Assembly (NCBI GenBank): GCA_951406725.2
Contig: OX597833.1
Location: forward strand, 11,408,001-11,472,000
Origin: Octopus vulgaris
Taxonomy: Eukaryota
Reading direction: 5' to 3'
Length of the DNA stretch: 64,000 nucleotides
Both the position numbers and the translations under genes were made by a program. The notes under the pieces are model-generated. The model was not told the origin of the DNA and made no database searches. It worked only from the letters and a program-made list of their open reading frames with translations. Below are positions 19,099-55,958 of the stretch, in pieces; the first letter of the stretch is position 1; each line of letters begins with the position of its first letter.

Positions 19099-19198
19099 CT
19101 GTGAAAAAATAGAAATAGCATCATATAAATAGAACTTCAGGGTATTTATTATCGTTTAGAACTTAAAACAATGCAATAGATGACAACATATTCGGACA

Positions 19199-21529: not shown

Positions 21530-21732
21530 AAAACTAAAAAGAACTGGATGCAAAAACGTTAAAGACGGTTTCGAAGTCTACCACGTAGACAGAACGTCTT
21601 ACAACGTTCTAGCAAATGACCATCGGAGTGATGTTGGCTTAATTAAAACGACTCCACGAGCCCGAGAAAGAGAAAAAGAGGCGGACCCACCTCCGCCTTT
21701 TAGCGAAGACACAAGAAATTGAGGTAAGACTT

Positions 21733-24700: not shown

Positions 24701-24812
24701 CTTCCTCCTTAAAAGGAAGGTGAGGCTGGAAAGAAGATGCCTGTCAAAGAAAATGTTCAAAGAAAGATGGTTGCATGTTGCGAGGGTGCTGGGAATGAAA
24801 GATTCCTCATGA
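21733..24812 (+). pseudogene. ORF2 (AP endonuclease, reverse transcriptase, C-terminal zinc finger), disrupted
   Basis: CLNVRGL, TETR, AIYAP, LGDFN, SDH; RQGCPLSPLLY, AYADDITI; CPRC..ET..H...C. Several stops and frameshifts and an internal deletion near 23278. Confidence 0.9.
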
Positions 24813-25055
24813 ACATGTCATAAGTCTGCATACAAATGTTTCAGTAGGAGAATGGGGCTCGTGGGTTCGGAGCGTAAGCCATCTCTCTGCTTCATCTCAT
24901 GTGTGTATTTCGTCCTTTTTGTATCTCATTCGATTTCATTCGATTTCATTATATTTTGTAAAATTTTAAAAGTCATATAATCATTGAGTGTCTGACCCCA
25001 ATCAGGCTGTATTGTCCCCCTCTATGTTTGGGCCCATGTGGCTAATAAAGAAATT

Positions 25056-25400
25056 GGATGTAGAGGGTTTGTTGGACACAGCGTGAGACGACTGTTGTTA
25101 TCGCTAGGCCTAACTCATCGTAAAGTCAATACCATCATGACTGATATCCAATCTACAGTGGAGAAGGCTAGCCACTGGATTTGGTTAAAAAGAGACGATG
25201 AGTGATGGCTAGAAGTATATTGAGTTCTTCATAACCAGCTGATCTAGCAAGCGGAGCCTCATATCAGTGCGCATTGATGCCGTCGAGAGGTAGGCCCCGA
25301 AACGGCGCGCAATCTCTCCTGATGACCCCATACACTTGCTAGCTTCCGGTATACGGAGCTTTTAACTGGTAGCACTTGCATGTGCAAGTTGTTTGCAAGA
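25056..25400 (+). mobile_element. HERO-like element, resumed 3' end (C-terminus and 3'UTR)
   Basis: Reads (G)CRGFVGHSVRRLLLSLGL...VEKASHWIWLKRDD, continuing EVG from 20259. Confidence 0.8.
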
Positions 25401-27080
25401 CATCTAAGACCTTGTGGTAGGGAACCACTGACAAACCGGAAAGACGGTTAGGCATCTTGGAAAGACAAGAGGACTGCTCGGAAAGACGAGCGGACAATAG
25501 GAAAGACTATCGACACCAGGAAAGACTGGTGGAGGCTGCGGACTTACGATCCTCGCCTTTGTAATATATTGTAACAGATATGAATGGATATGACAGCCCC
25601 ACGATCGACCGAGAGGGGAGAATCGAGAATCAATCAAACCGAGTCAGCACGGGAATGACCTTGGAAACGAGTGCGGTTATTCATTCGAACAGCGAACGAA
25701 ATGCAAACAACTTTGGATGCAAGCTGTGCTGTAGAACCTTTGCAACTGTGAGAGGCTTGAAGATACATCAGGGAAAGACTTGTGAGAAGAGGACAGAGCA
25801 GTGTGGATCGTCAGATCGTAAAACACGTGGCAAATCATCCCCGGACTCAAACCACAGCGGATCGATAAATGCTACAGCAGAGACCTCTTCGCGTGATGAA
25901 ACTACAAGTCATGAAACTGGTGCATCGGATAATACTCAGAGGAAACCGAGGGTTTTGTGGCCTGCTGCTAATGAGAAAGTGAAATATAAAGAGTTTGAAA
26001 ACAAGGTTTGTCGGGCTCTTTATAAAATGACAGGCTCTACAGTGGAGAAACTGGGCAAATTATCAAGCTCAGTATACGATATAGGAAAAGATTTATTTGG
26101 AATAAAAGGGAATATCCGGCTAGAGAAAGGAAAGTGTGGACCAAGCAGGAGGATCAGAAAAATGCAGCAGTTGAGGAAGGAAAAGTCCGACTTAAGAAAG
26201 CGATGGAGATGTGCTGCACTAGATGAGAAACCTGGCCTTGCGCTGCTGTATAACGATTTGAAGAGGAAATGTCGTTATGTGCAACGACATATCCGCCGAT
26301 ATGAGCGTCGAAAAGAAAGTAAAAGGACTCGGGGGCAGTTTCTGAAGGACCCGTACGGGTTTACTAAGAAGCTATTCACTGAACCGAAGAGTGGCACTTT
26401 ATCGTGCACTAAAGAAGAATTGGATGCTCATATCAAGGATACCTACAAGGCAAGATCTTTATGGGAATTCTGTCGAGGAGAACAGTGGCATATTTACACA
26501 AATTACTAATAACAGCCATGGACCACTTCCACATTCCTGACAAAGTGATCAAAATAATGAGGATGTACTATGACAGTTTCGAAATGAGGTTTACGACTGG
26601 AAATTTTACAACAAATTGGCACCGATTGGAAGTTGGCATTGCTGCTGGCTGTACGATATCTGTCACGTGGTTTATCTTAGTCATGGAGTTGATTTTGGAA
26701 GGTGTAGATTTTTCGGAACAAATCGCCCAGGTACAATCGCCTAAGAAAGCCTTCATGGATGACGTGACACTTCTAGCTACAGATGAAAAAAATCATGCAG
26801 AATGCCCTCTTGTGATTAGACGAACTTGTAAGGTGGTCAAGGATGCGATTTAGAGCAAAAAAGTCGCGTAGTCTGACATTTGTTAAGGGAGTGCAGAAAG
26901 AATTTAAGTTTCGAATATCTGAAGAAAGCATTCCAACAGTCAAGGAAGAGCCCGTCAAGAGCTTGGGTCGAGTATACGCTGGAACATTGTCAGACAGAAG
27001 TCGTGGGATTGAAATTATGAAACAGGCCGAGGCTGGGTTATCAGCGATTGATAATTCGAAGTTACCAGGTAAATATAAAA
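25400..27080 (+). mobile_element. Second HERO-like element: 5'UTR, N-terminal zinc finger and partial RT; internally deleted and 3'-truncated
   Basis: CKLCCRTFATVRGLKIHQGKTC, WPAAN, FLKDPYGF, GIAAGCTIS, KAFMDDVTL, EEPVKSLG, SKLPGKYK. RT domains 1-3 are missing near 26450. Confidence 0.8.
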
Positions 27081-27084
27081 TTGA

Positions 27085-28860
27085 TGTTTGTGACAGCACA
27101 TAAGATCTCCTCAGCAGGATCAATGACTGTAACAACACTTATGACCTGACAGGATGTATGGTGGGTAGCATGGATGTGGTATCCCTATACCCATCGATCG
27201 ACGTAGATTTTGCGGTGGAGAAGTGCGTGGAGATGATCAACGAGAGCCAGGTGGAGTTCCGTAATGTCAACACAGAAGAACTGGGCCTCCTACTTAGACT
27301 GACATGTAATAATGAATACTTAGATAAGCATAATCTTAGTAGTTTCTGCCCCAGTAGATGTTTAAGAGGTAGACCGCCCACAATTACGTCTATGGCTAGG
27401 AAGACACATATAGAAAGATGGCGCGGATGGACCAGAGCCATACGGAGCCCCGCAAATGTCCAACAGGTAAAGAAAATGATCGCACATGCACTAGGAGCTA
27501 GTATAAGAGTTACCCTAAAAGGCCACACGTTTAAGTTTAATAATAAAATATATGCCTAGGACGAGGGGGCAGCTATCGGCGTTAGTATCGCTGGTGATGT
27601 GGCTAACCTTTCCATGGTATGGTGGGACAGAAGGCTTAAAGAACGCCTAACACAGAACTCCATACTCGTAAACATGTACTCTCGCTATGTTGATGATATC
27701 AACATAGTGGTAAAGGCACCTCCACAAGAGAGTACTCTTGAAAGAGAAATAGAAACTAATACTATGGAGAGTATCCAGCAAATAGATAACTCCATCCTCC
27801 AGAGTATTAAGGTTACAATAGACTACCCCAACCATAGACTACCAGTGCTAGACACTGAACTCTGGCTAGAAATTGTGAATAATAAAACCCAAATCCTTCA
27901 TTCATACTATGCCAAACCTATGGCCTCAAAATACTTGATCCACCGGAACTCAGCCATTGCGGACAATGCCAAATTCAATATTTTGATGGCAGACCTCTTC
28001 AGAATAATGAGAAATGTGTCACGCATGTGCGAGCCCACAGAGTTAAAGAAACACATACGATATTTCATTCACCGCATGCAGTTCTCAGGTTACATCCATA
28101 AAGAAAGGATCAGAGTATACAAAGGAGCCATGAAGAAATTTGATAATATATTATGTAATGATAGGAATGGGATTTGCCCACTCTATAGGAACAAGTCATG
28201 GAACACTATAGAAAGGACAAAAAAGAAAATAGGGAAGGCCAACTTATGGTATGATAACCATAAATACCAGAGTGTCATGTTCGTTGACACCACCCCTGGA
28301 GGTGAACTGGCGTACCGCTTTAGAAGGACCCTAGACAAACTGAAGCTAAGAATTAACGTTGTTGAAAAGCCAGGCAACCCTATCAAATCTATAATTGGTA
28401 GAACCTATCCTTTTAGTAGAACCCCCAGTACGGATAAGTACTGTACTGTATGTAGATTTAGCCCACAAACAAACTGTAAAGCCAGGAATGTAGTCTATAG
28501 TATAAGATGTATAGAGGGACGATGCAGTAACAAGACAATGACATACGTAGGGGAAACGGCAAGAAGCATAGGAGAGCGGGTAAATGGACATTGGAGACAA
28601 CTCAAGGAAGGTAAAAGCTCATCGATTCTGTACCAACACGCCGAACAGAAACACGGGGGATCAATCAATAACATACAAATTAAAATATTGTCCACACATA
28701 GAACAGATGCAACAATTAGACAAATTACAGAAGCTACACACATAATAGAAAATAAACGTAGCCTGAATAGAAAACTAGAATGGAGCACTAACACACCACA
28801 ACATGTGACGATAGAGGATCCAGAAAACATAATAAATACACAGATAAATAAACAAATAGA
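27085..28860 (+). mobile_element. Penelope-like element (RT and GIY-YIG endonuclease), 5'-truncated, with an in-frame stop at 27557-27559
   Basis: GSMDVVSLYPSI, G.AIG..IAG.VANL, YSRYVDDINI, LPVLD, YYAKPMAS; NVVYSIRC...YVGETARSIGERVNGH. Ends in (TA)n. Confidence 0.88.
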
Positions 28861-28866
28861 AATAAA

Positions 28867-28931
<65 letters not shown>

Positions 28932-29496
28932 GTGTGTGTATATATATGTATATATATATATTTTTTTTTTCAATTCGATTTATTATTGTTATTACTAGTA
29001 TTGTTGTTATACATACATACATACATACAAGCATATGTAATGATAATAATAAGTAGATGTAAACACATGAACAAAATAAGAATAAACAAAAACAACAACA
29101 ACAGAAACAAAATACAAATTACATGAACGTATATAAACAGAAGATAGAAATATTACAGGCATCCCCCCACATACACACACTATATAAACATAGACGCACA
29201 TAGAGATATAAGCATGCGCAAATGAAGACATACAATAGAAATACAAAAAGGCTTACGGTTAGTAAGGAGAGACACAAATAAGAAAGAAGAAATCAAAGGA
29301 CCACTGATGCGGTCACAGGAGTGTGACGAAAGAACTCTGGCCGAAATAAGATTAAGATTAATGTAAAAAATAAATAACACTGAAGCAAAATAACACCAAA
29401 TATGTCAATATGACCATTCCGAAATATAACAATATCTGTTTCAACACAGGACTTCACATAAAAAATCTTGCACAACAAATATTTAAACGTACTATA

Positions 29497-29569: not shown

Positions 29570-29827
29570 GTATGTTTAGGTGTGTGCGCCTGTGTTATTT
29601 TATGTGTATACGTGTGTGATGGATCGTACGTGTGTGTGTGCTGTATTGGAACATATGTACATGGTTCATGCATACATCCTTACATCCATCCATCCATCCA
29701 TCCATCGGTATGTACATACATCCATATATTCATACATGCACGCATACACACATGCATACGTGAACGCATACATACATATATAAATACATAAAGACATACA
29801 TATATTAACACAAAATCCATGACTTAC

Positions 29828-29971
29828 CGTTTTCGATTTCTCTTCCATTTTTCCTATTCTTGAATCTTGATGAAGAATCACGATCGTCAGAACGAGAAGA
29901 ACCCCAAAAGCAATGAGAGAAGAAATGGAATAACGCTGCGAAATATTCCTGAACTGTTGTGCGAAATCCAT
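29828..29971 (-). CDS. Exon 1 of C4-like gene copy B (signal-anchor)
   Basis: MDFAQQFRNISQRYSISSLIAFGVLLVLTIVILHQDSRIGKMEEKSKT with GTAAGT donor; the nearest intact exon 1 upstream of exons 2-4. Confidence 0.75.
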
Positions 29972-30356
29972 TCTGGTGACAGTTGTCGGTCGTACGTGAT
30001 ACTTCGTGTGGCTTCAACAAAAGATCGAGATGCGAGGTTTAAGCTGAAGACCTGTAACTGAATTCCACGTATTTATTGAGCGCACAACAACCCAGCTCTG
30101 GCATAGATCTTATCGTAAATTTAAGAACCAATGCGATTGGTGGAACTGTAAAAGTGGGTGTGAACTTGTCTGACAGGTTTAATTATTGGAAAGAGAAGGT
30201 TTGATATTGTCACACAATAATTAGCAAAATATTTTGATGAATGAGAGACACGTGTAAAGTGAAATGATTCCTGTTTCTGGATATATTATGATATATTTAT
30301 TTACTAATGTTGTTATTTAATTTTCTTTGTTATTCTTGGGAAGCTGTTTTAATATT

Positions 30357-32869: not shown

Positions 32870-33561
32870 ATTAATAGTAATTTTTATTAACTTTCATAGC
32901 TTTAGAATTTTATGAACTGAACCATGGTTTTAATTATTATTTTTCATCTCCCTATGTAATGAGTATTATATTATATAAGTGTAGCATTATGATGTATAAG
33001 TTTTTATATTTTACATTTTTATATTTTTATATTTATATGTATATGGTTATATAATATTTTTCACAATTATAACAAATTTAATTTAATTCTCTGAAGAGGC
33101 CGTGGGGCATCCTTGTTAATGCCTCATTTATACCTGCCTTTATGGCTTAGAGGTTAAATGAGGTATGACTGCCCTCACTGCCGAAACAGCTGTCAGTTTT
33201 GATTTAATTGCATATTATATTTGAAATTTTTTACTTATATCTCTTTATCTTTTTACTATTACTGTATATCTCATTTTGTATAATGCCTTTACTCATATGT
33301 AATGGTGTATTAAAGTATTGATTGGGTATCATCGGATAGTTGATGTTTTATTGATTTAAGTATGTTTCTCCATTCTCTAATTTTGTAGTATTAATTTACG
33401 GTAATATTATTACCTTTACCCATATAATACAATAGATGAACTGATTGTTTGACAATTTTTAACATCTATGTATTAATCTTGTTGGGTACCTATCTGGCAG
33501 TATATTGGATATATATTATCCCATGGTGGGTTGAATTTTCAACCCCTATCTCATTTTATAA

Positions 33562-33570
<9 letters not shown>
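31969..33570. mobile_element. Penelope-type pseudo-LTR relic with ~195-bp inverted repeat and hammerhead motif, inserted in (TA)n
   Basis: 31969-32164 is the reverse complement of 33195-33389; hammerhead core at 33091-33194. Confidence 0.65.
33085..33200 (+). ncRNA. Type I hammerhead ribozyme motif with extended stem II
   Basis: CUGAAGA (33091-33097), long hairpin closed by GGC/GCC, GAAA (33183-33186), palindromic ACAGCUGU stem III, GUC site (33192-33194). Stem I is weak. Confidence 0.65.
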
Positions 33571-33591
<21 letters not shown>

Positions 33592-33594
<3 letters not shown>

Positions 33595-33732
33595 GACAGG
33601 CTTCTTTCAGTTTCCGTCTACCAAATCCACTCACAAGGCTTTGGTCGGCCCAGAAGACACTTGCCCCAGATGCCACGCAGTGGGGACTGAACCCGGAACC
33701 ATGCTACTTACCACACAGCCACTCCTGCGCCT
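33592..33732 (-). mobile_element. 5' half of the octopus-type SINE
   Basis: Reverse complement of the SINE head (aggcgcaggagtggctgtgtggtaag...gggttcagtccc) with small deletions. Confidence 0.75.
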
Positions 33733-33762
33733 ATATAATATGTATATGCATATGGATATATT

Positions 33763-33874
<112 letters not shown>

Positions 33875-34204
33875 TTCGTACCGATATCTTACAGTCATTT
33901 ATCTGAGAAATACTCCACACGCACCAACATGCATGAATGATTACCTACAGGTAGTTAGTTGGGTGGTGTACATTTTGTGATATTTCTGAAGCAGATAATT
34001 AATACCTTTTATAAGACGAGAACTGAATCTAGATAGGAAACTGTTGATGCGCATTCAGGGCCAACGCAATGGTGCATATAGAAGTTATTTTTGTTGTTGC
34101 TGTTGTTGTTGTCGGTAAAGCCCTCATGCACTTTCTGTCCTTTTATGAATCCGAATTGTGAGATTAAAACCGCATAAATTATTACATTGATCTCGATTTG
34201 TCAG

Positions 34205-34711
34205 CTTCCGAGATCGCGAGCGACGCGGCCGCCCGCGCGCCGCGACCGCGCTAATCCCTCGCAAGGGGGCGACGCGCGTTGCGGTCGAGGGACACCTCGC
34301 CCGAAAATCCGCCCGCTGCCGCCGGTCAGCGACGAGCATCGGCAACCTACCCGACCCGTCTTGAAACACGGACCAAGGAGTCCCAGTCGACTGCGAGTCG
34401 TTGGAGCCTTTCAATTCGCAAACTCCGACGGCACAGCGAAAGCGAGAACGTGACACGACGTCGCCGTCTCGCTTCGGCGTGACGGCGCTTCGAAGCATTG
34501 TTCCCGGGTCGGGTCCGCGCGTTCGCCGCGACGTTCGCGTCCGGCGTTCCCGCTCCGACTCAGGTGTAGCAGGCGGCCGGGGACCCGAAAGATGGCGATC
34601 CATGTCCGGTCGGGACGAAGCCAGAGGAAACTCTGGTGGAAGTCCGACGCGCCTCTGACGTGCAAATCGATCGTCGGAACCGGGTGTAGGGGCGAAAGAC
34701 CAATCGAGCCG

Positions 34712-34751
<40 letters not shown>

Positions 34752-36620
34752 CGGCGCCAGCGGGAGAACGACACGCAATTCCGTCCGGTAAGGCGAACGA
34801 CTGGAGGCCCCGGGGACGTTGACGGCCTCGATCTACTCTCGAACTCGGAACGGGCGAAACGGGCCGCTCCTCTCTCGATCGGAGGCGGCCGCCGTTATGC
34901 GACAACGAATGCAAGGTGCCAAGTGGGCCACTTTTGGTAAGCAGAACTGGTGATGTGAGATGAACCGAACGTCCGGCTAAGGTGCCCTACGCTTCGCCCA
35001 TTAGATCCCCGAAAGAGTGTCGGTCGATATAGACAGCAGGACGGTGGCCGCGGAAGTCGGAATCCGCTCAGGAGTGTGTAACAACTTACCTGCCGAATCG
35101 ACCGGCCCCGAAAATGGATGGCGCTGGAGCGAGCGACCGATGCCGGACCGGCCGGGCGATAGGTTGCGCGATCGCCGGCGAGGCGACTTTCCGATGCCCG
35201 GTCGAGTAGGAGGGCGCCGCTGCGCACGTGGAAGCCGCGGGCGCGAGCCCGGGTGAAGCCGACCGCGGGTGTAGATCTCGGTGGTAGTAGCAAATATTCG
35301 AACGAGACCTTCGAAGACCGAAGTGGAGAAGGGTTCCGTGCCAACGGCGGTCGAGCACGGGTCAGTCGGTCCTAAGAAGCGGGCGAAAGCTTCCACGAAA
35401 GGCGCCGGATCCGTCGTTGTAAACAAAGAACTTCCAGTTCATCGTAGTACGCGGCGGGCCTCGCATCGAAAGGGAATCGGGTTAATATTCCCGAACCCGA
35501 ACTCAGAGAGTGCCCGTCCGTCGGCGGGAACGCGGCGTGCTCTTCCTAGCAGCGCGTCCGTCGTCGAAGCCGGCGGCTGGGCGAAGCAGCGGCAACGCAA
35601 GCGAGCCCGGAGACGTTTCCGGGAGCCCCGGGAAGAGTTCTTTCTTCTTCGCAAAGGACCGCGTCCGTGGAATCGGCTCATCCGGAGATAGGGATATGGT
35701 ACTGGTAGAGCGCCGTCTCGGGCGGCGTTCGGTGCGCTCTCGGCGGCCCTGGAAAATCCGGATCCGTAACGAATCGCAGCTCTCGAGTCGGTCCGTACCC
35801 ACCATCCGCAGCAGTTCTCCAAGGTGTACAGCCTCTCGTCGATAGCGCCAATGTCAGTAAGGGAAGTCGGCAAAATGGATCCGTACCTTCGGAAGAGGGA
35901 TTGGCTCCGAGGACCGGGTCGGTCGGGCCGTGTGTGCCGCCTCGCTCCCGCGCGGTCGCGTCGCCGTGCGCTCGGTCGCGTCGCCGTGCGCTCGGCGTCG
36001 CGCCGCCGGGCGCTGGAGCACGTCTTCACGCGAAGCGGCGGACCGGTAAGGGGCTGTAGCGTTGGCGTCGGACTCGGCATCCCGGTGCGCCCCATTTTTC
36101 CGACAGTTGTCGCTGCGCCGGCGGGCAACCCGCTTCGCGCAGGTGCGCGGTCGCGCCTACGGCCAACGCGGGTCGGCTTCTACGCGCGCGTACTCTCCCT
36201 CCGCTGCGCTGCGTTCCGTCGCGCCGCCACCTAGGGACCTCCCGGTCCGGAAAGCCCGCGCGTGGCTGGAGCGTTGCCGCGGCTGCCGGAACCGCGCGCG
36301 GGGCCCTCTCGTGCGTCGGCGCGTGCGCGGGCCGTCCTTCGGCGGTGGATCGGTTTTATACGGGGTGCCCGGGCGTAGTGGGCGCGAACAAAACAGCTCC
36401 ACACCCGGGACGCCGTGGAGCGACACGGCTTCGGGCTCGCCATCGCGTCGGTGCGCGCGCGGCTCGGCTCCGTCAGGCGTCGGTCGTCGTCGCGCATCGC
36501 GACGCGCGGCAGGCGTTCGGCCGGCGGCGAACGGTCGACTCGGAACTGGTACGGACCGGGGGAATCCGACTGTCTAATTAAAACAGAGCATCGCGTAGCC
36601 GGCCGAGCCGCACAGACGCG

Positions 36621-36652
<32 letters not shown>

Positions 36653-36670
36653 AGTGAAGAAATTCAACCT

Positions 36671-36708
<38 letters not shown>
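34205..36708 (+). rRNA. 28S rRNA gene fragment (end of D2 to the R2 target site), orphon/pseudogene
   Basis: Conserved cores ACCCGTCTTGAAACACGGACCAAGG, CTGGTTCCCTCCGAAGTTTCCCTCAGGATAGC, GTAAGGGAAGTCGGCAAA, GGGAATCCGACTGTCTAATTAAAAC and GTAAACGGCGGGAGTAACTATGACTCTCTTA, with GC-rich expansion segments. Confidence 0.95.
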
Positions 36709-38390
36709 CGTGGGGCTTGATGGTTATGACCCACGAACCTTGCAAATGGTTGTTGTTCCTACTGCTCATTCACTTGGGGTGAACTTGCTTGGGTACGATT
36801 TGATGCGATTTGTCCCCACCCCACCGAGTTTCGTTGGGGGCAGAAAAGATCCAGTCGGTTGAGGGCACCTGCGGTGTCCTATAGGAACACCGGTGTGGGT
36901 GGTGTAGAGGGGGATACACACCTGCGGTGTCCGATCGGAACGTTGGCAGCGAGGCGAGAGGGTGGATGCACCATCAAGTTTGTCTGGTATGTTATGATCT
37001 GCAGGGTTTTATCCAGGAGATTGATTCACTGCCAGGCTTCACCCACTGGGACACTACCTTGTCGTGGTGTAAGAGCTTACGTCTGCGGGGGGGGGGGGAT
37101 GCAAGCCATTATTGGCTTTTGCTGGTACCAACCCTTCCGTGGACAAACTAAAAGTGTCCTTTCCCCATAGCGGTGCCAATCATTTGGTGGGGACCAAGCA
37201 GTGTGGAGGTTTTCGTTTACAGAGTGAGATGATGCCCTGTTGGTTGGTCGTGGCTGCGCTTGTCGGCCTTCTGTTCATCCGGATCGGCCATTACTCGGCT
37301 TCGGTGTTGTGTAAAGGCCCCCCATTTCTCAGGAGAATTTCACGGGGCGGCGCCCTCGGATGGTTAAGGTCGGAACGGCTGCTCTTATAGGCCGGTTTGG
37401 GCTGCTAACAAGAAGAGGTGGGGATGGGGTGTTTGCATCCTGCCTCTGATCTCGCCTATAAGTTAGCGCCTCGTAAAGGCTACTGTCCCTGGGTGGCTCT
37501 GGATTGATGTCTCCTGACGCCAGATTGTTGTGGCCCGCAATATTTATAGCGCGGGTGGACTCACTTTCTGGACTCACAAGTGGAGCCAACCCACTGACAG
37601 GTAAACTGTCAGTATGGAGCCCTTCGCGGGCTGTTGCCGGGTGTTTGGCATGGTGTATGGATTTCGGTTGGCAAGGAAGGATGTTGGCATACGGTCTACA
37701 GGGCTTGACTCCTTACTCTTGTATTCTTGATTATCGTCCACGTACTCTTGGAAAATGCCGCGAAGTTTGAATCCATTATAAGGTAGAAAACATACGGTTG
37801 CCAGGGGCCGTATAAGCTGGTGGCTTGCAGGTTAAGAGCGGGGCCTCCAAGCCTGGCCGAGCGTGTTGCCCAATCACGTTGGGCCAATATTAACGTTCTT
37901 TGCAGTAGTAAAGAGTCAGCTACACTACAGGCATTTCCAGTGGCTCAACCACCAAATTTGACCCTGTGTGTTCCTATCGGATCCTGCACATAAAACCCCC
38001 TCGATGATGTCCTCGCAACTTTTTCTTTTCTTTGAGGACTGAGAGGCTGGTGTGCAGGATGCCCCTCAAGTTTTTTTTTTTTTTTTTTTTGAGGAGGTGG
38101 CAAGGTTTGGGGGCCGTGCCTCGATAGGAACTGAAAAAAAAAAAAAAATATACCCGGATTTGACTTCTTTTTTTCTGTTTATGAAAAAAGTACCCGCCTT
38201 GCTGATGTTTTTAGATCCCTCTCTACTATGGATTGAATTCCTGGAAGAATTTTAACATTTTAGATTGGCATGTAAGGTTGTCGCAAGATAGGGAATTGGC
38301 CTTGAGAATGTGGGACCGCCCACAATAAAAACAGGGAATAAACTCTATAGAGTTTCAGTACATAAGGGGAGGTGGACGGATCGAAGGCGA
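36709..38390 (-). mobile_element. 1.7-kb foreign insertion in 28S; probable decayed 5' part of a site-specific non-LTR element, orientation tentatively antisense
   Basis: Abrupt loss of rRNA similarity after CTCTCTTA and return at GAGATTCCCACTGTCCC. The minus strand shows broken Cys/His/Trp and Pro-rich segments but no RT motif. Confidence 0.45.
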
Positions 38391-38428
38391 GGAGATTCCC
38401 ACTGTCCCTATCTACTGTCTAGCGAAAG
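38391..38428 (+). rRNA. Short resumed 28S segment (contains the R1 target sequence)
   Basis: GAGATTCCCACTGTCCCTATCTACTGTCTAGCGAAA matches conserved 28S about 50 nt downstream of the R2 site. Confidence 0.85.
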
Positions 38429-38434
38429 CAGAGC

Positions 38435-38781
38435 TGAGTACGGCGAAGACCACGAGTGTGTGTGTCCGTGTGTTATCGACGAGGCACGAAGCGGCGATTT
38501 TACTTTCAAGAGTTCTCGGTCGAGTGCACGAGTGCGCCGAGGTATGCGGCCGGTTGATTGCCGGGGAGTAAGTCTGAGTACGACGAAGACCACGAGTGTG
38601 TGTGTCCGTGTGTTATCGACGAGGCACGAAGCGGCGATTTTACTTTCAAGAGTTCTCGGTCAAGTGCACGAGTGCGCCAAGTTATGCGGTCGGTTGATTG
38701 CCGGGGAGTAAGTCTGAGTACGACGAAGACCATGAGTGTGTGTGTCCGTGTGTTATCGACGAGGCACGAAGCGGCGATTTT
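38435..38781. repeat. 140-bp tandem subrepeat (2.5 copies), rDNA spacer-like
   Basis: ctgagtacg(g/a)cgaagacc... recurs at 38435, 38575 and 38715. Confidence 0.9.
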
Positions 38782-38782
38782 A

Positions 38783-40850
38783 TGTGCCCGATATCGAAAG
38801 AACGCACCTAAGCTCACAGTGTCACCCACGTACACGTGGACGTAGTTGCGACCGATGCCGGAAGGATGTCACGAGATACACGCGGTCGATAGGGCAACGT
38901 GGTCCTTCCCGTAAGTTCCCGAAAGATGACAAACAGCGGCCAGTGCAGGTATTGGCGGGCCTGCACCAGTCGCGCGGAGCTCCGCCGCTCTGCCGTGCCC
39001 GATCTAGTGAGGCTGAAGCGAACCTCGCGCTCTCGCCCACGTGAACGTGGACGTAGGCGCGATCAATGCCGCCAGCCGCCTGGAGTGTGTGGCGATGTGA
39101 AACGGGTGAATATGGCGACGTGGTCCGACCCGTAAGTTAAAGGAATCAGACCCGTAAGCTGACGGGTCGGCCCCGGCTGGATAGTCACGCTCTAGGTGAC
39201 CGTCGCACCCCAAGGGGGTCAAGACTATATTGAGGGCTTGCAGTCGGCAGGTGGATGTCTCCGGGATCGTTCGGCAGGATGCCCGAGACGTCAGCCTAAG
39301 ACGCCGTCAGCCCGGCGAGTGGCCGCCGCCTTCACGCCATCTTGCTTTCCCCGTTCGTCCACGCGCTGCGGGGCCGTTAGCGTCAGGCTTGCGCCTGTCG
39401 CCCGTTCCTCCGCCGCGCTACCGTGCCCGAAATAGAAAGAACGAACCTAAGCTCGCGGTATGGCCCACGTACGCGTGGACGTAGCCGCCACCGATGCCGG
39501 AAGGCGTTCACGAGACGCACGCGGTCGATACGGCGACGTGGTCCGTCCCGTAAAATCCCGAAAGATGACAACTGCGGCTAGCACGAGGTAGCGGCGGCAG
39601 GCCTGCGCCGGTCGCCCGTTGCTCCGCCGCGCTACCGAGCCCGAAATCGGAAGACCGAAACTAAGCGCGCGGCATCGCCCACGTACACGTGGATGTAGCC
39701 GCGACCGATGTCAAGAGATGCACGCGCTGGATACGGCGACGTGGTCCGTCCCGTAAATTCGCGAAAGATGACAAACTGCGGCCAGTGTAAGCAGGGGCTG
39801 CCTACGCCAGGCATGCTCCCTCCTTCGCCCGCAGCTCCGCCGCGCTACCGTGCCCGAAATCGAATGAACGAACCTAAGCGCGCGGTATGGCCCACGTACA
39901 CGTGGACGTAGGCGCGATCGATGCCGTCAGTCTCCGGAAGTGTGTGGCGATACGAACCGGGTAGACAGAGCGACGTGGTCCGACCCGTAAGGTTAAAGAA
40001 TTCGATCCGTAAGCTTACGAGTCGGCCCCGGCTGGATAGTCACGCTCTAGGTGACCGTCGCACCCCAAGGGGGTCAAGATTATATTGAGGGCTTGCAGTC
40101 GGCAGGTGGATGTCTCCGGGACCGTTCGGCAGGAAGCCCGAGACGTCAGCCTGCGACGCCGTCGGCCCGGCGGGTGGCCGCCGCCTTCACGCCACCTTGC
40201 TTTTCCCGTTCGTCCACGCGCCGCGGGGCCGTAAGCGCCAGGCATGCGCCGGTCGCCCGTTGCTCCGCCGCGCAACCGTGCCCGAAATCGAAAGAACGAA
40301 CCTATGCTCGCGGTGTGGCCCACTTACGCGTGGACGTAGCCGCGACCGATGTCGCGAGATGCACGCAATCGATACGGCGACGTGGTCCCTCTCGTAAATT
40401 CCCGGAAGATGACAAACTGCGGCCAGTATAAGTAGGGGCTGCCTTCGCCAGCAGCTCCGCCACGCGACCGTGCCCGAAATAGAAAGAACGAACCTAAGCT
40501 GGCGGTATGGCCCGCGTACGTGTGGACGTAGCCGCGACCGATGCCGGAAGGACTTCACGAGATACACGCGGTGTATACGGCGACGTGGTCCGTCCCGTGA
40601 AATCCCGAAAGATGACAACTGCGGCTAGCACCAGGTGGCGGCAGGCCTGCGCCGGTCGCCCGCGTCTCCGCCGCCCTACCGTGCGTGAAATCGAAAGCAC
40701 GAATCTAAGCGCGCGGTGTCGCCCACGTACGCGTGGACGTAGCCGCGACCGATGTTGCGAGGTACAGGCGTTCGATACGGCGACGTGGTCCGTCTCGTAA
40801 ATTCCCGAAAGATGACAAACTGCGGCCAGTGCAGGTATCGGCCGATAGCG
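38783..40850. repeat. GC-rich ~200-bp subrepeat array with 855-bp higher-order repeat, probable rDNA intergenic spacer
   Basis: gtgcccgaaatcgaaagaacgaacctaag...cgtggacgtagccgcgaccgatg...gatgacaaactgcggcc recurs about 8 times; 39030-39480 repeats at +855. Confidence 0.8.
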
Positions 40851-40894
40851 GCGGGCCTGCGCCCGCCTTCTCCCGCCTTCTCCCGCCTTCGCCC

Positions 40895-41052
40895 GAGTGG
40901 ACGGGGGATCACTCGGCTCGTCCGTCGATGAATAGCACGGCTATCCGCGTGAACTGATGCGAATTGCAGGACTCAGTGAACATCGACACCTCGAACGCAC
41001 ATTGCGGCCCCGGGATCCTATTGTCCCGGGACCCCGTCTGGTCGAGAGGCGG
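40895..41052 (+). rRNA. 5.8S rRNA gene (divergent; 5' end uncertain)
   Basis: GGATCACTCGGCTCG..GTCGATGAA, GAATTGCAGGAC..TGAACATCGA, GAACGCACATTGCGGCC. Confidence 0.9.
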
Positions 41053-41574
41053 TCACGACACGAAAACGCCGTCCGCCGCGGCCGTTGGCTGCGACGGGTT
41101 TTCGGGAGTCGCAGGAAAGGGCGGCGCTTACCGCGAGGCCCGCATTATCTCGCGCGCGAGCCGCCGACGCTCGATCGTCCGTCTCTCGTAATGCTAGACC
41201 GTCATCGTTGCGAAGCGCTGTTGCGACGGCCGCGCCGCCCCGAATCGCGCGGCCGATGACGACAAATCGCGGAGGGAACCCGCCGACGAGCGGAAGCAGA
41301 GGAGTAGGAGCAGTAGTAGGAACAACGACGACACGGCGAGGCCCCTCGTCCCGTCAACGTCCTCTACGTCCCTCCGAGCAACCGCCGCCCTTCGTCGTCG
41401 CTGCCACCGCCCTTCGTCGTCGCTGCCACCGCCACCGCCGTCTCGTCCTTCGGCGTTCGCTCTGTGGGAATATCTCCTTCGTGCGAGCGTTTGTGCCGAT
41501 CGACAGCGGTGCGCCGGTTGCAGCACGAGCAGCAGCCGTCTCTTCGCAGCGGGGAACTCTTTATTTTTTCACGC
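41053..41574 (+). other. ITS2
   Basis: GC-rich spacer between 5.8S and the 28S 5' end. Confidence 0.8.
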
Positions 41575-41879
41575 TGCCCTCGACTCAGACCCGATTACCC
41601 GCCGAACTTAAGCATATCGCTAAGCGGAGGAAAAGAAACCAACCGGGATTCTCTAAGTAACGGCGAGTGAACCGGGAGAAGCCCAACGCCGAATCTCGTC
41701 GGCCGCGCCGGTCGTCGAGAGCTGTGGCGCAAGGGTCGTACACGGTCGATCGATTCGCCCGGCTAGGTTCAGAGTCCCCTCGATCGGGGCTGCCCAGAGC
41801 GGGTGCCAGGCCCATTCGGAGCCGGCGGCGATCGACGGTGTTCATCGGCCCGAGAGTCGGGTTGCACGAACGACGCAGC
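41575..41879 (+). rRNA. 28S rRNA 5' fragment (start through D1), truncated
   Basis: ACCCGCCGAACTTAAGCATATC..AAGCGGAGGAAAAGAAAC..AGTAACGGCGAGTGAA, ending after GAGTCGGGTTGC. Confidence 0.92.
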
Positions 41880-42549
41880 ATTTTGTCAGTTACGTGTGGG
41901 TTCCGGCGGTAAGCCATATACCAGCTTTAAACACACACAACCATAATCATCTTTCCCCTCCAGTCACACTACCACCGAGCACTTCTCAGGACGCACACCA
42001 CATACCTTTATCCGCATACACTCACACAATCTTTAATAGCAGCTCCACACATGCCACTATACAGGCAGTCACGCACATTGTTTCACCCAGTACACACGCC
42101 ATAATGCACACTACTGCACCCAGACAGGCGCATAACACATGAATACAGACAATGCATATACACAAACACGCAACGCACATAACCACACGCAGTATGCATA
42201 CGCACCGACAAATTTCGCCCTCAATACATAATCAATACACATGCACACTATTTGGTCATTGGCACATACATACACAAGTACAGGCTCCACCTGAACAAGG
42301 ACACATCACATTCTACACACAACACGCACACGTTAATCCCACACATACACACACGTCCATATGCATACTAACACAGATACACATTTCCATACGAACACAC
42401 ACACATATATACACCCAGACTCGCTCATACATATCTACCCACACGCTGCCATTCACATATACACCCTCACACACACCATTCACACATGCTTGGGCACCTT
42501 AGTTCGTTTGGATTACAGTTACACTTGTTATTTTCATACACCCTCAACA

Positions 42550-43900
42550 AATTAGACTGCTGGAAAAGAAATAATCTTAGCATCGATTTACAACAAGCAA
42601 TCTCAGATGCAAAGAGGCCTCCAAAGTAGGTCCCTAAGCTGTATCTAATGAAACTGTTTTCTAGAGCCGTACGAATCTGGGTTTTATACCCATTTCCTCT
42701 CTCCATCTCTTCACATCTTTCAGGATAGTTCCCAATACACCTCTAAGTACTCCAATACATTTTCCTCTCAAATAGAGACAACAGAAAGGCTAGGTCCTCG
42801 TACTTTACTCTTCTTTCTACACTTCTCCTATTAATGTTTTCATTATTTGGGACTGAAAAGTCAATTGTCAGGACACTTTCTATTCTCTTTATCTACTACT
42901 ACCAAATCAGGCCTTCAAGCTTCTGTTACTGTGTCAGTCTGAATGTTAAAGACCCACACCATTTTATATCTCTTACATTATACTAATTTACTAGGTTCAT
43001 GTTCATACCAGTTATCACCATGTTCAAATAGTAGCTTTCTACATAGCTTCCAGTGGATTATCTCCCTAGATTATCATGTCTTTTCTACTATTCCTTCTGT
43101 TCCAGCATGCTACATTCACTAACCAAAGGATTAACGGTTTCCTCTTTTGATTTCCATAATATTCATTGGTAATCTACTTTGTTTTTGTCTATTTTGGCCA
43201 TTATCAAATTAGTCCTCCATACTTGATCTTATGCCGCTACTAACAAACTTTGTCTTCCGCTCCAGCTTCCCTTTCTGCAAACATGAGCTTCTCCCAGTAC
43301 CACAATTTGATGCTACTATCTTTGGAAATCTACCATGCATAGGAGTCTATATCTAATCAAGGTAACTCCAAAAAGTCTCCTATTGATATTAACCCTCTTC
43401 CGCCTTTCTTTCTGTGTTGATATAATCTTACTACTCCTGCCTTTGTGTGGAGTCATCCATCTGTCTAAATTTGCAAATACAGTTTTTGTCTAATCTACAA
43501 AAGCTGCTGAGTATCTAAGTAATGAGACTGCCTAAGTAAACACGGCCTTCACTACATTTGGACTATTTACCTTTGCCTTCATTAGCTTCCTCACCCTCCG
43601 ATGTACCCCTTCTCCATTTTCGTTTACATTTCTGTATTTAGTACCCAGATTCTAATACTCCTCGATACTTACTGCTCTCTCCTCCTTCCAATCATTTAAA
43701 GGTCTGGCCATCTGTTAATTGGACGTCTTCACTGTTGACTATCTGCCCCTTCTCATAACTAATATCTATGCCAAATTCCATGCCTATATCGTTGTTGAAG
43801 TGTCTTACAGTCTGTATTATAAATGTAACGTTTTTTCACTCTTACTAAGTACCAAAAGATCTTCCATGTGGAGCAATTGGTTAATTTGTCGCTTTTTAAT
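42550..43900 (-). pseudogene. Degenerate R4/Dong-like RLE non-LTR retrotransposon, 3' portion
   Basis: Minus-strand remnants KY.GVLE, AVSLLRYSAA, KGGRGLISI, RHDNLGR, FNIQTDTVTEA.RPDLVV and DFSVP, in the expected order. Confidence 0.7.
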
Positions 43901-44222: not shown

Positions 44223-44330
44223 ATGTATGTATGTATGTATGTATGAATGTATGGAAAAAGTCAAGGTAGGAGATGCTAAACTAATTTTACAAAAAACATT
44301 TCTGTACCGCTTTCAGAAGAAGAAGAAGAA

Positions 44331-44535
44331 GAATGCGGGAGTGCCATGATAGTAGTATGTTAAATGGTCAAGTGCCCTGAAAGTGACCCGTTGTGGATGG
44401 TAGTAGTGTTTGGGACTGTTTTTGAAAAAACAGTTTTTTCAAAAGTCCCAATTGCTGCTATAATCCATAACGAGGCACATTTAGGTCAATTGACCATTTA
44501 ACACGCTACTACTATCACACTACCTGCATTCCTTC
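44331..44535. repeat. ~200-bp imperfect palindrome (MITE-like foldback)
   Basis: tgatagtagt..tgttaaatggtcaa / ttgaccatttaaca..actactatca, centred on ttttgaaaaaacagttttttcaaaa. Confidence 0.75.
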
Positions 44536-45479
44536 TCATTCTCCCTTATCTTTCTCCTTCTTCTTCTTCGTCTTCTTCCTCTCCACCAACTCCTTCCTAA
44601 CTTTACTACTATTGCTGTTTAGAGTAACACCTAGGCAAACTTTATAAACTAAACATTCAAAAGAGATGTCTCAAGAATTCAGTCACTAAAAACTGCATGG
44701 CTGCAGTTTAATGACTGAAAATATGTACAGGTGTGGTTTCATTTATTATTCTAGTTGAAGAGCATTTAGGACGTATCTGAGTGGTATGAGATCCGAATAT
44801 AAGGTGTGGGAAGTTTATGTAAATATAGGTTAAAAATTGTCACTGAGAGGACAAGTAGTCATATTCCAGTCGAATTTTCAAGACTATTTTCCGTGTAAAG
44901 TCCATAGACATAACAGCCTTATATGTATTTAGCTAAGCAGCATTCTGCGGTGTTTCGTAAGTGGATGTGAAAAGTTATTCATGGGATGGTAACGGAGAAT
45001 TGAGCGGAAAGATCTGCGGATGTTGATTTTTGTTAGAGTTGTACATGTGGGAGTAATTCTTTTGTTGTTGTAGCCATTATATATTTCATGATAAGTTTGT
45101 AAAGTAGTGTGGTGCTTCAGTGAGTTTGTCTTAGTTTGTATTATGAATCCGAGTGATTCTTTGAAAAGCCATACGTCTGAGATGGTGGCGCCAGTACGAG
45201 ACTTGCTTGAATTTTTAAAGTTGTGCGTGAACAGTTGATATCTTTCTGTGATGGTACTTCATTCTAAGGTTTGGTGTATTTGAGACAGTAAAGAAATTCC
45301 TGTTAAACTAAATATCATTTTACTTTAAGATTTAAATGTTATGCACAGAACCTTACACCATGATTCTTGGACTATTCGCCCAGGTTTACATTGTTATGCT
45401 TTCATATTTCTCACAGTCTATCATGTGTTTTTGTTTTTTCATTTCTTTTCAACATTTTCTGAAGGCAAGTATAACAAAT

Positions 45480-45715
45480 TATGACTGTGGCAATGGCTCA
45501 CCAATTAAGCTGAATACTTTGTTGTCCAACCAGTGTAACTTCATAGCAACAGCAGGTTCTCGTATAAAACAGACATCGCACAGAATATTATGGTCATGAT
45601 GGGATTTGGCGTTAATGAAAGAAATGATTGTATTTGTCGTGTATAAGTTTAATTGATATTTACTACGATATATAGTTGCGGCTTTTTCTAGCTCCGTTGT
45701 AAAAGAATAGGCACG
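45480..45715 (-). pseudogene. Decayed exon 4 of a C4-like paralogue (copy C)
   Basis: AYSFTTELEKAATIYRSKYQL..SFINAKSHHDHNILCDVCFIREPAVAM aligns with ANYTTEVEKCGYIHGSEYEL..SYANAKSLHNHNVPCAVCLTRQPAVVM, then deletion and frameshift. Downstream flank 45160-45330 resembles 9990-10155. Confidence 0.8.
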
Positions 45716-47600: not shown

Positions 47601-47727
47601 CTGTGTAGGAAAGTGGAACATCATTATTGCGGGTCTCTATTCACGAATGATTCAAAGTTGGTGAAATTATAAATCATTAGTTAAGGAGACACGGGTAAAA
47701 GACTTTAGCCATAAAAATAGTTCTTAC

Positions 47728-47779
47728 TTGGTGTGTCATCAGGTTTATCGTCGAGAGATTTCTTGGAGATGAAACGGTT
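47728..47779 (-). CDS. Exon 2 of C4-like copy C
   Basis: 52 bp with intact AG/GT; encodes NRFISKKSLDDKPDDTP. No exon 3 is found downstream. Confidence 0.6.
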
Positions 47780-47877
47780 CTGTGAAAAAATAGAAATAGC
47801 ATCATATAAAGAGAACTTCAGGGTATTTATAATCGTTTAGAACTTAAAACAATGCAATAGATGACAACATATTCGGA

Positions 47878-48140
47878 CAGGTATCATTGCCAACACTACC
47901 ATCTCAACCCCTTAGAAATCTTCTAGAAGGCGCTTCAATCCAGTCAAAGGATTTTCTGAACAATATCAGACAATACAACTCTGCATTTCAAATGACATCG
48001 TTTGGTGAATCTAAGAAGATAGATAAACATGAATTTACGCCGACGTCAAAGTTCAAGGGCAAGTCTATCCCATCATTGGTTCCCTGGTACTCTCGAATGA
48101 ACAACCACAGTTCCTCCAAATTTACTCTATGAGTGATGTA
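47878..48140 (+). pseudogene. Helitron fragment (duplicated)
   Basis: FLNNIRQYNSAFQMTSFG motif. Confidence 0.7.
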
Positions 48141-48229
48141 GGACAAGAAACCCGACGTGAGGTGTCAAAATTTCCGATGATGGGTCGTGTTAGACACAGC
48201 GCACACTGCTGCAAAGGAGAGTATATCCC

Positions 48230-51811: not shown

Positions 51812-52281
51812 AATAGAGAGAGAGAGAGAGAGATAGACAGAGAGATACAGTGATAGATACACACACGCATATATTTGTTTGTATATATATATCTATATAT
51901 GTTCACGCACTAATATATTCATATATATGTATATTTATATATACATATATATGTATATTATATATACAAATATATGTATATGTATATATATGTATGTTTA
52001 GGTGTGTGCGCCTGTGTGTTCGTGTGTGATTACGTGTGTGATCTTATGTGTGTGCGCGCTCTATAGAAACATATGTACGTGATTCAGGCATACATCCTTA
52101 CATCCATCTATCCATCCGTACGTACATACATCCATATATTCATACATACATACGTTGATGCATACATACATACATACATGCATCCACATATTAATACATA
52201 CATACGTAAATGCATACATACATACATGCATATATAAATACATAAAGACATACATATATTAACACAAAATCCATGACTTAC

Positions 52282-52425
52282 CGTTTTCGATTTCTCTTCC
52301 ATTTTTCCTATTCTTGAATCTTGATGAAGAATCACGATCGTCAGAACGAGAAGAACCCCAAAAGCTATGAGAGAAGAAATGGAATAACGCTGCGAAATAT
52401 TCCTGGACAGTTGTGCGAAATCCAT
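52282..52425 (-). CDS. Exon 1 of C4-like copy C
   Basis: Same 48 codons as copy A; GTAAGT donor. Confidence 0.7.
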
Positions 52426-52845
52426 TCTGGTGACAGTTGTCGGCCGTAAGTGATACTTCGTGTGGCTTCAACAAAAGATCGAGATGCGAGGTTTAAGCTG
52501 AAGACCTGTAACTGAATTCCACGTATTTATTGAGCGCACAACAACCCAGCTCTGGCATAGATCTTATCGTAAATTTATGAACCAATGCGATTGGTGGAAC
52601 TGTAAAAGCGGGTGTGAACTTGTCTGACAGGTTTAATTATTGGAAAGAGATGGTTTGATATTGTCACACAATAATTAGCAAAATATTTTGATGAATGAGA
52701 GACACGTGTAAAGTGAAATGATTCCTGTTTCTGGATATATTATGATATATTTATTTACTAATGTTGTTATTTAATTTTATTTGTTATTCTTGGGAAACTG
52801 TTTTAATATTCAGTGTGGGAAGTATTTCGTTCAACAGACGAATAC

Positions 52846-55264: not shown

Positions 55265-55763
55265 TCAGTATTTACTGCACACAACGCAGGTTAATTCTCG
55301 ACCATCGACATACGGTGGACATGGCAATGAACCACAAGCAGCCTGAACGAAATATAAAACAGCTCCATTTTCATTTCTGTAACCTGCTGGATCAGCTTCT
55401 GGTGCATAATCTACACACACATATTCTTGCCTGCCCTTTTCTGCGTGATGACTAGCCATCAAATATCCTGAATACTCAGCTGTCCAACCAGGGTAACACT
55501 TTGTCCTGGCTGGTAACATCATAACGACAGCAGGTTGTCGTGTCAAACAGACAGCGCACGGAACGTTGTGCTCATGAATTGATTCAGCGTTAGCAAAAGA
55601 AAAGAGTTTATTAGTTGGGTAAATTCCAGTTGATATTCACTGCCATAAATGTAACCACCTTTTTCAACTTCTGTCGTATAATTGGCCCAAATGGGGTCGT
55701 TAGGTAGACACAAGAGATTACTTCCGCCACCTGTGTGGTCGTACCATTGTCCACCAGCCACAC
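55265..55763 (-). pseudogene. Exon 4 of C4-like copy D with a single 1-bp frameshift near 55620 (pseudogene or assembly error)
   Basis: 499 bp against 500 bp in copy B. Two overlapping ORFs (55543-55761, 55265-55546) together give the full domain. Confidence 0.8.
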
Positions 55764-55958
55764 CTTGAATTAGTAAGAATAAATCAATTAAAAAAGATAT
55801 AAAGCAAAATTATATATGAAATAACGGAAACATTCATTACAATTTTTCACTTAAAAGAAGTCATGTTTAATCACGTGTGAACGAATTGTGGTGTATATAT
55901 GTTAGTGTTTATATGAGTGTAAACTGTGTGTTGCTGAATCGTAACTGTACATATACCT

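Follow-up and report, generated by a model that had tools for sequence, protein, structure and literature searches.

A permuted, internally deleted rDNA unit with an 8-nt direct repeat at its ends, lying between ordinary genes of Octopus vulgaris

The entry of rDNA into new loci is often proposed and little studied in detail, integration of rDNA circles being one proposed path of its spread (PMC10257491). Several described systems are close to the locus analyzed in the current study. Human cSDPs, formed via circular DNA intermediates, have a B-then-A donor order, an unrelated acceptor site and no long homology at the ends (PMC7450558). Tailless rRNA retropseudogenes (PMC5322556) and SINE28 are rRNA-derived sense inserts with a short flanking duplication. 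The third group consists of R2 elements and R2-R1 SIDEs; R2 5' junctions are variable, SIDEs are non-coding, and in some fish the R2 stands in place of 110-130 bp of 28S (PMC3414825, PMC3774820, PMC5035012). The words Octopus and cephalopod are absent from the main text of two R2 surveys, and a literature search, in which subscription journals were thinly covered and supplements excluded, found no description of the cephalopod rDNA unit, its ITS1, its IGS or the present locus.

The window, i.e., the whole 64-kb stretch of DNA that we analyzed, contains a permuted, deleted rDNA unit with an 8-nt direct repeat at its ends. This block of ~7.7 kb is intergenic, among ordinary genes, and it is the only rDNA in the window, with ~34 kb of host DNA on one side and ~22 kb on the other; no other copy of it was found there. 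It is rRNA gene sequence outside the tandem array, i.e., a putative orphan rDNA pseudogene. Between 34205 and 41881, the block starts with 28S from late D2 on, which is interrupted by an insert of 1,683 nt and then resumes for 36 nt; sub-repeats amounting to 2.5 kb follow, and the block closes with 5.8S, ITS2 and the 28S 5' end, all parts having the same sense orientation (Table 1). This permuted order, proposed in an earlier note on the sequence, was confirmed by Rfam LSU and 5.8S matches and by repeat mapping; the LSU matches cover 34372-35840 (model 665-1888) and then run from 35859 onward. The note had counted 38 nt of 28S after the insert, which is about right (36 nt, or about 43 nt with mismatches), and a partial likeness extends from there into the first 140-nt repeat. 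A full rRNA set is impossible from the block, where SSU and LSU model positions 2365-3401 and 287-~500 are absent; Rfam gave no SSU match to the 64 kb at the gathering threshold, and none within 33500-42500 even when E values up to 5 were allowed. Therefore, of the parts described earlier as lacking (the 28S 3' end and ETS-18S-ITS1), the 28S 3' end and 18S are indeed absent by Rfam; within ETS-18S-ITS1 the absence is shown for 18S only, as the spacer may be either IGS or ITS1.

Table 1. Features of the rDNA block and its flanks (positions in the window).
Feature	Position	Strand	Basis and remarks
Left flank, ~63% match to region downstream of last coding exon in paralogous gene units	33956..34169	+	alignment
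Left copy of 8-nt direct repeat (putative target-site duplication)	34197..34204	+	8-mer search, GC profile, chance estimate
28S piece, late D2 to 3 nt before R2 site (LSU model ~500 to 2276)	34205..36708	+	Rfam; CpG o/e 1.43
Non-coding insert, 1,683 nt, replaces 52 nt of 28S	36709..38391	.	GC 0.50, CpG o/e 0.66; T20, A15, G12 runs inside; unclassified
28S piece, 36 nt (model 2329-2364)	38392..38427	+	Rfam alignment
140-nt tandem repeat, 2.5 copies, 96-97% identical	38434..38782	+	repeat search
~200-nt repeat array, 7 core motifs found	38783..40895	+	repeat/motif search; IGS-like, may be ITS1
5.8S rRNA gene	40893..41051	+	Rfam; matches begin at model position 6-10
ITS2	41052..41575	+	by position between 5.8S and 28S
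28S 5' end to model ~286 (start approximate)	41576..41879	+	Rfam match starts 41598 at model 24
Right copy of 8-nt direct repeat	41882..41889	+	8-mer search
Right flank, non-LTR element, decayed, 5'-truncated, RT + restriction-like endonuclease; outside insertion	42600..43894	-	homology search

Our main reading, to which we give a probability of about 0.45, is that a unit that was already disrupted gave rise to an rDNA circle, which was opened in 28S, lost at least 200 nt and was end-joined into a staggered chromosome break. An rDNA circle entering a chromosome break, the likely origin of the block, is a kind of event already known. The block shares with cSDPs the donor order, the unrelated acceptor site and the lack of long end homology; its donor, however, is rDNA with internal deletions and its duplication is a clean 8 nt (PMC7450558). 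As in ecc-rDNA integration or ectopic recombination, rDNA is found outside the array, but in those cases whole clusters spread through satellite homology, whereas here one defective unit lies in non-homologous intergenic DNA (PMC10257491). The block is also sense and tailless with a short duplication, like rRNA retropseudogenes and SINE28; these derive from one RNA, whereas the block is 7.7 kb long, composite and permuted, with spacer-like repeats (PMC5322556).

The first 28S piece ends 3 nt before what we take to be the R2 site on the LSU model, and 28S resumes 49-50 nt downstream of that site, without the precise 3' junction of R2 type. The insert gave no Pfam match above cut-off in any of six frames, no PDB match below E 0.3 in the three forward frames, and nothing below E 1 in tblastn against two RT-RLE proteins; no transposase-like ORF was found in it. 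An HDV-like ribozyme descriptor, home-made and run without a positive control, gave 0 matches at the insert 5' end, none of 11 Rfam matches to E 10 belonged to a ribozyme family, and the fold of the 5' end had a z-score of -0.43. The ends of the insert share no 6-mer and its 3' junction lies at +50, so that the 3' junction of R1 or of an R2/R1 SIDE (+60, with a 14-bp duplication) was not seen, and its best terminal inverted repeat had 8/20 matches. Judged from its sequence, the insert is not a canonical R2, because it has no ORF homology and 28S resumes downstream of the site. A group I intron was ruled out, as 28S fails to resume at the insertion point. The left junction close to the R2 site resembles variable R2 5' junctions, and the non-coding content resembles SIDEs; in fish R2s, however, the 5' junction is shifted upstream, whereas here the 3' junction is shifted downstream (PMC3414825, PMC3774820, PMC5035012). 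The insert differs from R2 elements and from R2 or R2-R1 SIDEs in that its 3' end matches neither the site of R2 nor the junction of R1, with no duplication, RT homology or detected ribozyme.

The 8-mer TTTGTCAG is found six times in the window when both strands are counted, against 2.44 expected; on the + strand it occurs only at the two block ends. The direct repeat is exactly 8 nt, and its copies sit at both GC transitions (GC rises from 0.30 to 0.80 at 34200 and falls from 0.72 to 0.44 over 41800-41950). Among 50000 random pairs of host positions, a shared 8-mer was found in 52, 126, 409 and 1413 pairs at +-3, 5, 10 and 20 nt, respectively; a match as near both ends is seen in 0.1-0.8% of random host pairs. 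The 8-bp repeat reported earlier at both GC/AT transitions is thus upheld. An exact repeat at both composition breaks fits the single integration with target-site duplication that had also been proposed, although the paralogues in the window gave no empty site. The earlier note placed the right end just before D2; it stops instead at LSU model ~286, and the variable region begins only ~140 positions further on, near model 430. The two ends are separated in 28S by at least ~200-210 nt in Rfam numbering (the native length may differ), in agreement with the claim that the block ends a few hundred nt upstream of its start. An 11/14 likeness between the two ends was set aside, since 119 of about 5000 random pairs show the same and the right end keeps an rRNA stem.

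Neither a poly(A) tail nor an A-rich priming site was found at the block ends (A makes up 0.27 of the last 30 nt, and T makes up 0.10 of the first 30 nt), and terminal inverted repeats are absent, the best of 36 offset pairs having 9/20 matches. These ends bear on a very improbable explanation, namely that the block is a non-autonomous transposon (hAT-like, with an 8-bp duplication) or another mobile unit made of rDNA. A duplication of 8 bp is typical of hAT, and the observed length agrees with it; in addition, Pokey elements carry IGS-derived 200-bp repeats (PMC10946416). Against a transposon are the missing terminal inverted repeat, the insert devoid of a transposase-like ORF and the single copy in the window.

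Both flanks are rich in microsatellites, and the junctions are sharp and lie outside them. Homology of the left flank to paralogues ends at 34169, ~30 nt short of the block, and is not taken up again beyond it; the right flank had no match in three paralogous stretches (scores 20-24), and the two flanks belong to different sequence families. No empty site was found in the paralogous units of the window, and none of 756 near-matches of the 8-mer resembles both flanks. An assembly or read chimera, in which collapsed rDNA contigs were joined to an unrelated locus, would account for the paralogue homology that stops without resuming, rDNA being hard to assemble and the flanks being rich in microsatellites; however, we consider it improbable, as a mis-join would not be expected to leave exact copies of an 8-nt repeat at the two ends, and the junctions are sharp and not in microsatellites. 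The best site among the 8-mer near-matches, where an L1-like element resembles the right flank at its 3' end over 32 nt (75%), was dropped when 2 of 60 shuffles reached the same. The non-LTR element in this flank is probably an old bystander. It is heavily decayed: stops and frameshifts are numerous, its identity to intact relatives is 29-53%, and its ORF ends ~700 nt from the block, all of which rule it out as the insertion agent; a homolog search with a 49-aa piece was empty, as was Pfam for all four pieces.

The rDNA copy looks young, because its CpG is undecayed: CpG o/e is 1.25-1.65 in the rDNA parts versus 0.54-0.95 in the host. Between the first and the second copy of the 140-nt repeat, 5 sites differ. 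Of the sampled 31-mers, 52-58% are present in three DNA runs from three studies (3 of 24 listed runs; the top run may be the assembly source), which, provided that all of the stretch is present, puts divergence at no more than about 2%. This share, pooled over the stretch and not by position, exceeds the 42% made up by rRNA genes and ITS2; therefore, spacer, insert or flank is shared with the three runs. In RNA runs, the share was 0.07-0.09 (X15-X20) and 0.01-0.02 (X22-X24), with no weight either way. Scans of metagenomes for the native unit gave 0 matches of the 5.8S motif, and all 14 matches of the 28S motif were only 20-29 nt long, i.e., chance.

The same excess of 31-mers could be expected of a native, multicopy rDNA unit type that lacks 18S and has its 5.8S-ITS2-28S driven by spacer-promoter repeats. 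The only two TATATT motifs of the block, a putative promoter, lie in a higher-order duplication of 855 nt (87% over 433 nt) within the ~200-nt array, and the repeats of this array lead straight into 5.8S. We find this the least probable of the explanations: the present copy, which has no 28S 3' end, is dead, the promoter role of TATATT is putative, and such a unit would go against the co-transcription of 18S, 5.8S and 28S, which is to our knowledge near universal.

Repeat homology ends at 40895, and at most ~13 nt separate the sub-repeats from 5.8S. It follows that either ITS1 itself is the repeat array, or there is a join at the 5.8S 5' end, as an RT template jump would give; folding z-scores for ITS1 versus IGS were uninformative, the ITS2 control not being negative (mean +0.8). 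The 5.8S 5' end is the 5' end of 32S pre-rRNA. It is possible, if unlikely, that a non-LTR RT, priming from a nick, worked right to left along Pol I transcripts with template jumps, copying first a 5.8S-ITS2-28S fragment and then, from its 5' end, spacer RNA and RNA of 28S plus insert; the result would be a 7.7-kb chimera, with the 8-nt repeat as a TPRT duplication. The putative join at about the 5.8S 5' end (repeat homology to 40895, 5.8S from model 6-10), the second join 3 nt from the R2 site and the sense orientation of every part agree with such copying. There are also precedents: R2 co-transcripts self-cleave in the region of the R2 site in some species (PMC3774820), R2 RT jumps in vivo from an RNA 5' end to other RNAs (PMC3414825), and tailless rRNA retrocopies are known with duplications of 8-35 nt, a range with 8 nt at its lower edge (PMC5322556). 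However, this would take a spacer transcript and as many as three or four jumps within 7.7 kb, nucleolar rRNA retrocopies are rare (ten of 28S and two of 18S in human; PMC5322556), there is no tail, no ribozyme was found at the insert 5' end, and the nearby LINE is too decayed as an agent. The coincidence at 5.8S is gone if the repeats are native ITS1.

Entry of a circle would have proceeded as follows. A 28S gene of the array would have carried a non-coding insertion at the R2 site; the sequence just past the insert would then have been joined to the sub-repeats upstream of 5.8S, either because a deletion spanned the boundary between units or when the circle was ligated shut. The ~8-kb circle would have been broken between model ~286 and late D2, losing at least 200 nt, and ligated into an intergenic break, where fill-in duplicated 8 nt, leaving a dead orphan copy from which no full 28S or 18S is possible. 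A circle fits because the two ends of the block are near-complementary, a few hundred nt apart in one gene and in B-then-A order, the arrangement by which circular intermediates were recognized in cSDPs (PMC7450558). It is favored by the 2.5 kb of IGS-like repeats together with the lack of a tail, by the exact 8-nt repeat at both composition breaks and by the young age of the copy. Two further points are post hoc and weak: the partial shared sequence at the 28S-to-repeat join (38428-38448, compared to the Rfam consensus only, from which the native unit may differ), and a perfect 7-nt inverted repeat across the left junction, which is seen in 202/20000 random host-rDNA pairs. Snap-back end-joining would leave such an inverted repeat at a junction. 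Conversely, the opening loss of at least ~210 nt exceeds the short scars of 1-27 bp in cSDPs (PMC7450558), a second deletion would have to end within ~13 nt of 5.8S by chance if the repeats are IGS, and the flanks are of different families, so that their contiguity is putative. The earlier note had named an extrachromosomal circle or capture by a retroelement; the near-complementary ends fit the former, the adjacent LINE falls away as the agent of the latter, and other retroelement capture persists as a rival. A circle is dispensable if what was captured at the break was a linear stretch of the tandem array that crossed a single unit boundary and carried internal deletions. The parts follow one another as they would along two adjacent rDNA units and the opening gap is large, as such a piece would allow, but the near-matching ends would be coincidental; by a rough estimate, only some 5-10% of random fragments would have a right end within a few hundred nt upstream of the left, which makes this origin quite unlikely.

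If confirmed, the block would be a young, clean, base-resolved germline record of a piece of rDNA entering a new locus. It likewise keeps a spacer array and, at the R2 site, an unclassified non-coding insertion, both from a lineage whose SINE motif and repeat content look cephalopod. Its biological weight is modest, as it lies between genes with no evident function, unless the join at 5.8S reflects an RNA end or a native arrangement. If a unit without 18S were true, large- and small-subunit rRNA genes would be transcribed apart in an animal lineage.

The earlier note had described a permuted rDNA order, and this order is borne out by the Rfam matches for 28S, 5.8S and the 28S 5' part, together with the repeats. 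The 18S was said to be missing, and the Rfam search indeed gave no SSU match. In the left 28S piece, 167 nt precede position 665 of the model (Rfam consensus numbering), and the right end lies at ~286; thus, at least ~210 nt are absent between the block ends in this numbering, in agreement with the claim that the block ends a few hundred nucleotides upstream of its 28S start. The proposed 8-bp repeat at the GC/AT transitions holds as well: the terminal direct repeat is exactly 8 nt long, and the two plus-strand copies of TTTGTCAG, at 34197 and 41882, both lie on GC breaks (six occurrences in the window, compared to 2.44 expected). Random pairs of sites in the host DNA surrounding the rDNA had a common 8-mer in 52, 126 and 409 of 50,000 trials for ±3, 5 and 10 nt, respectively. 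The block with its terminal repeat is real in the assembly and beyond chance; misassembly of the locus is improbable.

Features of the rDNA block, its flank and the host gene cluster (window positions)
Feature	Position	Strand	Details
28S (LSU) match	34372-35840		Rfam, model 665-1888
Further LSU match	from 35859		Rfam; last nt of the first 28S piece is 36708 (model 2276)
Second 28S piece	from 38392, 36 nt		starts at model 2329
140-nt repeat, 2.5 copies, then ~200-nt repeats	up to 40895		
5.8S	40893-41051		Rfam
LSU 5' part	from 41598 to 41879		Rfam, ends at model ~286
Decayed 5'-truncated LINE	43894 to ~42600	minus	RT and restriction-like endonuclease
Cluster first exons	3716-4072, 29678-30013, 52111-52467	minus	
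Cluster last exons	10403-10945, 55268-55809	minus	
Decayed cluster last exon	45536-45706	minus	

We assign a probability of roughly 0.45 to DNA capture of an extrachromosomal rDNA circle, because the duplication is two-ended, inverted termini and a tail are lacking, spacer-like DNA lies inside, and the ends nearly meet in one gene. A fragment of a linear array is distinctly unlikely, and a transposon very improbable. Reversed order is a mark of circular intermediates, whose insertions carry scars of 1-27 bp; the block shares this order, although its loss is well above such scars (PMC7450558, in part). Circle integration is one named route of rDNA spread (PMC10257491, in part). The review PMC10946416 lists rDNA-derived elements, none of which is built like the block in the parts covered.

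In the spacer, an array of short repeats precedes ~200-nt repeats, which include an 855-nt higher-order duplication (377/433 identical) containing the only two TATATT motifs of the block. This layout resembles that of an intergenic spacer with spacer promoters. However, repeat homology extends to 40895 and the 5.8S matches begin at model position 6-10, so that unique ITS1 amounts to ~13 nt at most. Either the native ITS1 is the repeat array, in which case the whole unit needs only one join, at ~38430, or a second join fell at the 5' end of 5.8S. ITS1 and intergenic spacer could not be told apart by folding, and the literature search found no description of a cephalopod ITS1 or IGS (PMC8241861, in the part available, covers only 18S and 28S). 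Metagenome scans found no relative. A native unit without 18S is the least probable of the readings.

The insert within 28S (36709-38391) replaces 52 nt, with its left junction 3 nt before the R2 site in the alignment. Its GC content of 0.50 and CpG o/e of 0.66 are unlike those of its rDNA neighbours. There was no Pfam match above the cut-off in any frame, no PDB match below E 0.3 in forward frames, and neither of two RT-endonuclease proteins matched. The insert has no inverted or direct repeats at its termini and no second copy within the window. No ribozyme was found in Rfam up to E 10 or with a custom descriptor, which had no positive control. It should be noted that T20 and A15 runs, 43 nt apart within 38071-38148, could pair, and that a perfect 16-nt palindrome (38340-38355) lies near the right end. 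The left junction resembles the variable 5' junctions of R2 (PMC3774820, in part). The right junction, at +50, corresponds neither to the R2 site nor to the R1 junction, which lies at +60 with a 14-bp duplication (PMC3414825, in part); where fish R2s take the place of 28S sequence, the replaced part lies upstream, unlike in the insert (PMC5035012, in part). The insert is likely to be the remnant of an R2-site element, its 3' end deleted along with 49 nt of 28S; we do not class it as R2. Serial template jumps by a non-LTR reverse transcriptase would account for joins at both the R2 site and the 5' end of 5.8S, and template jumping is known for the R2 RT; however, several jumps are required and rRNA retrocopies are rare (PMC5322556, in part), making this RNA route unlikely compared to capture of a circle.

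On the left, 33956-34169 matches (~63%) the sequence that follows paralogous last exons, and the match stops ~30 nt before the block. For this extra copy, no neighbouring last exon was found, whether left or right of the block, which may reflect an earlier deletion within the cluster. There is a 7-nt inverted repeat across the left junction (chance 202/20,000; weak and post hoc). The right flank comprises ~700 nt of CA-rich DNA and then the decayed minus-strand LINE, which matches a 1114-aa RT protein (E 3e-11; tblastn E 1e-19 to 1e-25) whose best PDB matches are R2 proteins. From its motifs, we presume it to be R4/Dong-like; it is probably a bystander, since it is decayed, compared to the young block. 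The right-flank segment 41896-41927 shows a 75% match over 32 nt to an L1-like 3' end at 24861-24892; 2 of 60 shuffles reached this level, and the match was discarded. No empty insertion site was found within the window.

AT-rich animal DNA with many microsatellites makes up the window; going by a SINE motif, it may be of cephalopod origin. It contains a tandem cluster of minus-strand genes whose first exon is hydrophobic and whose last exon is rich in Cys; 17086-17184 is a partial copy of the first exon. The cluster protein has no Pfam match, and its Atlas look-alikes (0.94-0.98) are eukaryotic clusters without a name, one of which has C4 in 11% of its members. Judged by these exons, the block is intergenic: the decayed last exon lies on one side of it and the following first exon on the other. 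Nested retroelements occupy 19616-29056: an L1/Tx1-like element (~20438-25060; zinc knuckle, endonuclease, RT), apparently within an RLE-type element, and then a long ORF (27560-29056) without a Pfam match, presumably Penelope-like by its motifs. At a distance of 800 nt to the left of the block, a 195-nt inverted repeat (31970-32164/33195-33389, 98.5% identity, ~1 kb enclosed) resembles a foldback or MITE element of young age. An imperfect ~220-nt palindrome (76%; 44321-44542) lies in the stretch from the LINE remnant to the decayed exon. A 579-nt segment, to us reminiscent of a Helitron coding motif, recurs in three units at 95-97% identity (18969-19547, 47650-48228, 60588-61166).

The rDNA parts have a CpG o/e of 1.25-1.65, versus 0.54-0.95 in three host segments, and copies 1 and 2 of the 140-nt repeat differ at five sites. 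In the first part of the alignment to the Rfam consensus, most base pairs of the 28S core are conserved; compensatory changes are numerous, and some pairs are broken. Among 24 listed runs, three (from three studies, with two organism labels) contained 52-58% of 885 sampled words, these shares being pooled over all parts of the sampled stretch and the best run possibly being the assembly's own source. Provided that every part is present, this corresponds to a divergence of no more than ~2%; the share exceeds the 42% made up by the rRNA genes and ITS2, assuming even sampling. The block is most probably a young orphan insertion of rDNA that belongs to a known kind, and two unexplained details are worth a look: the non-coding insert at the R2 site and the repeats abutting 5.8S.
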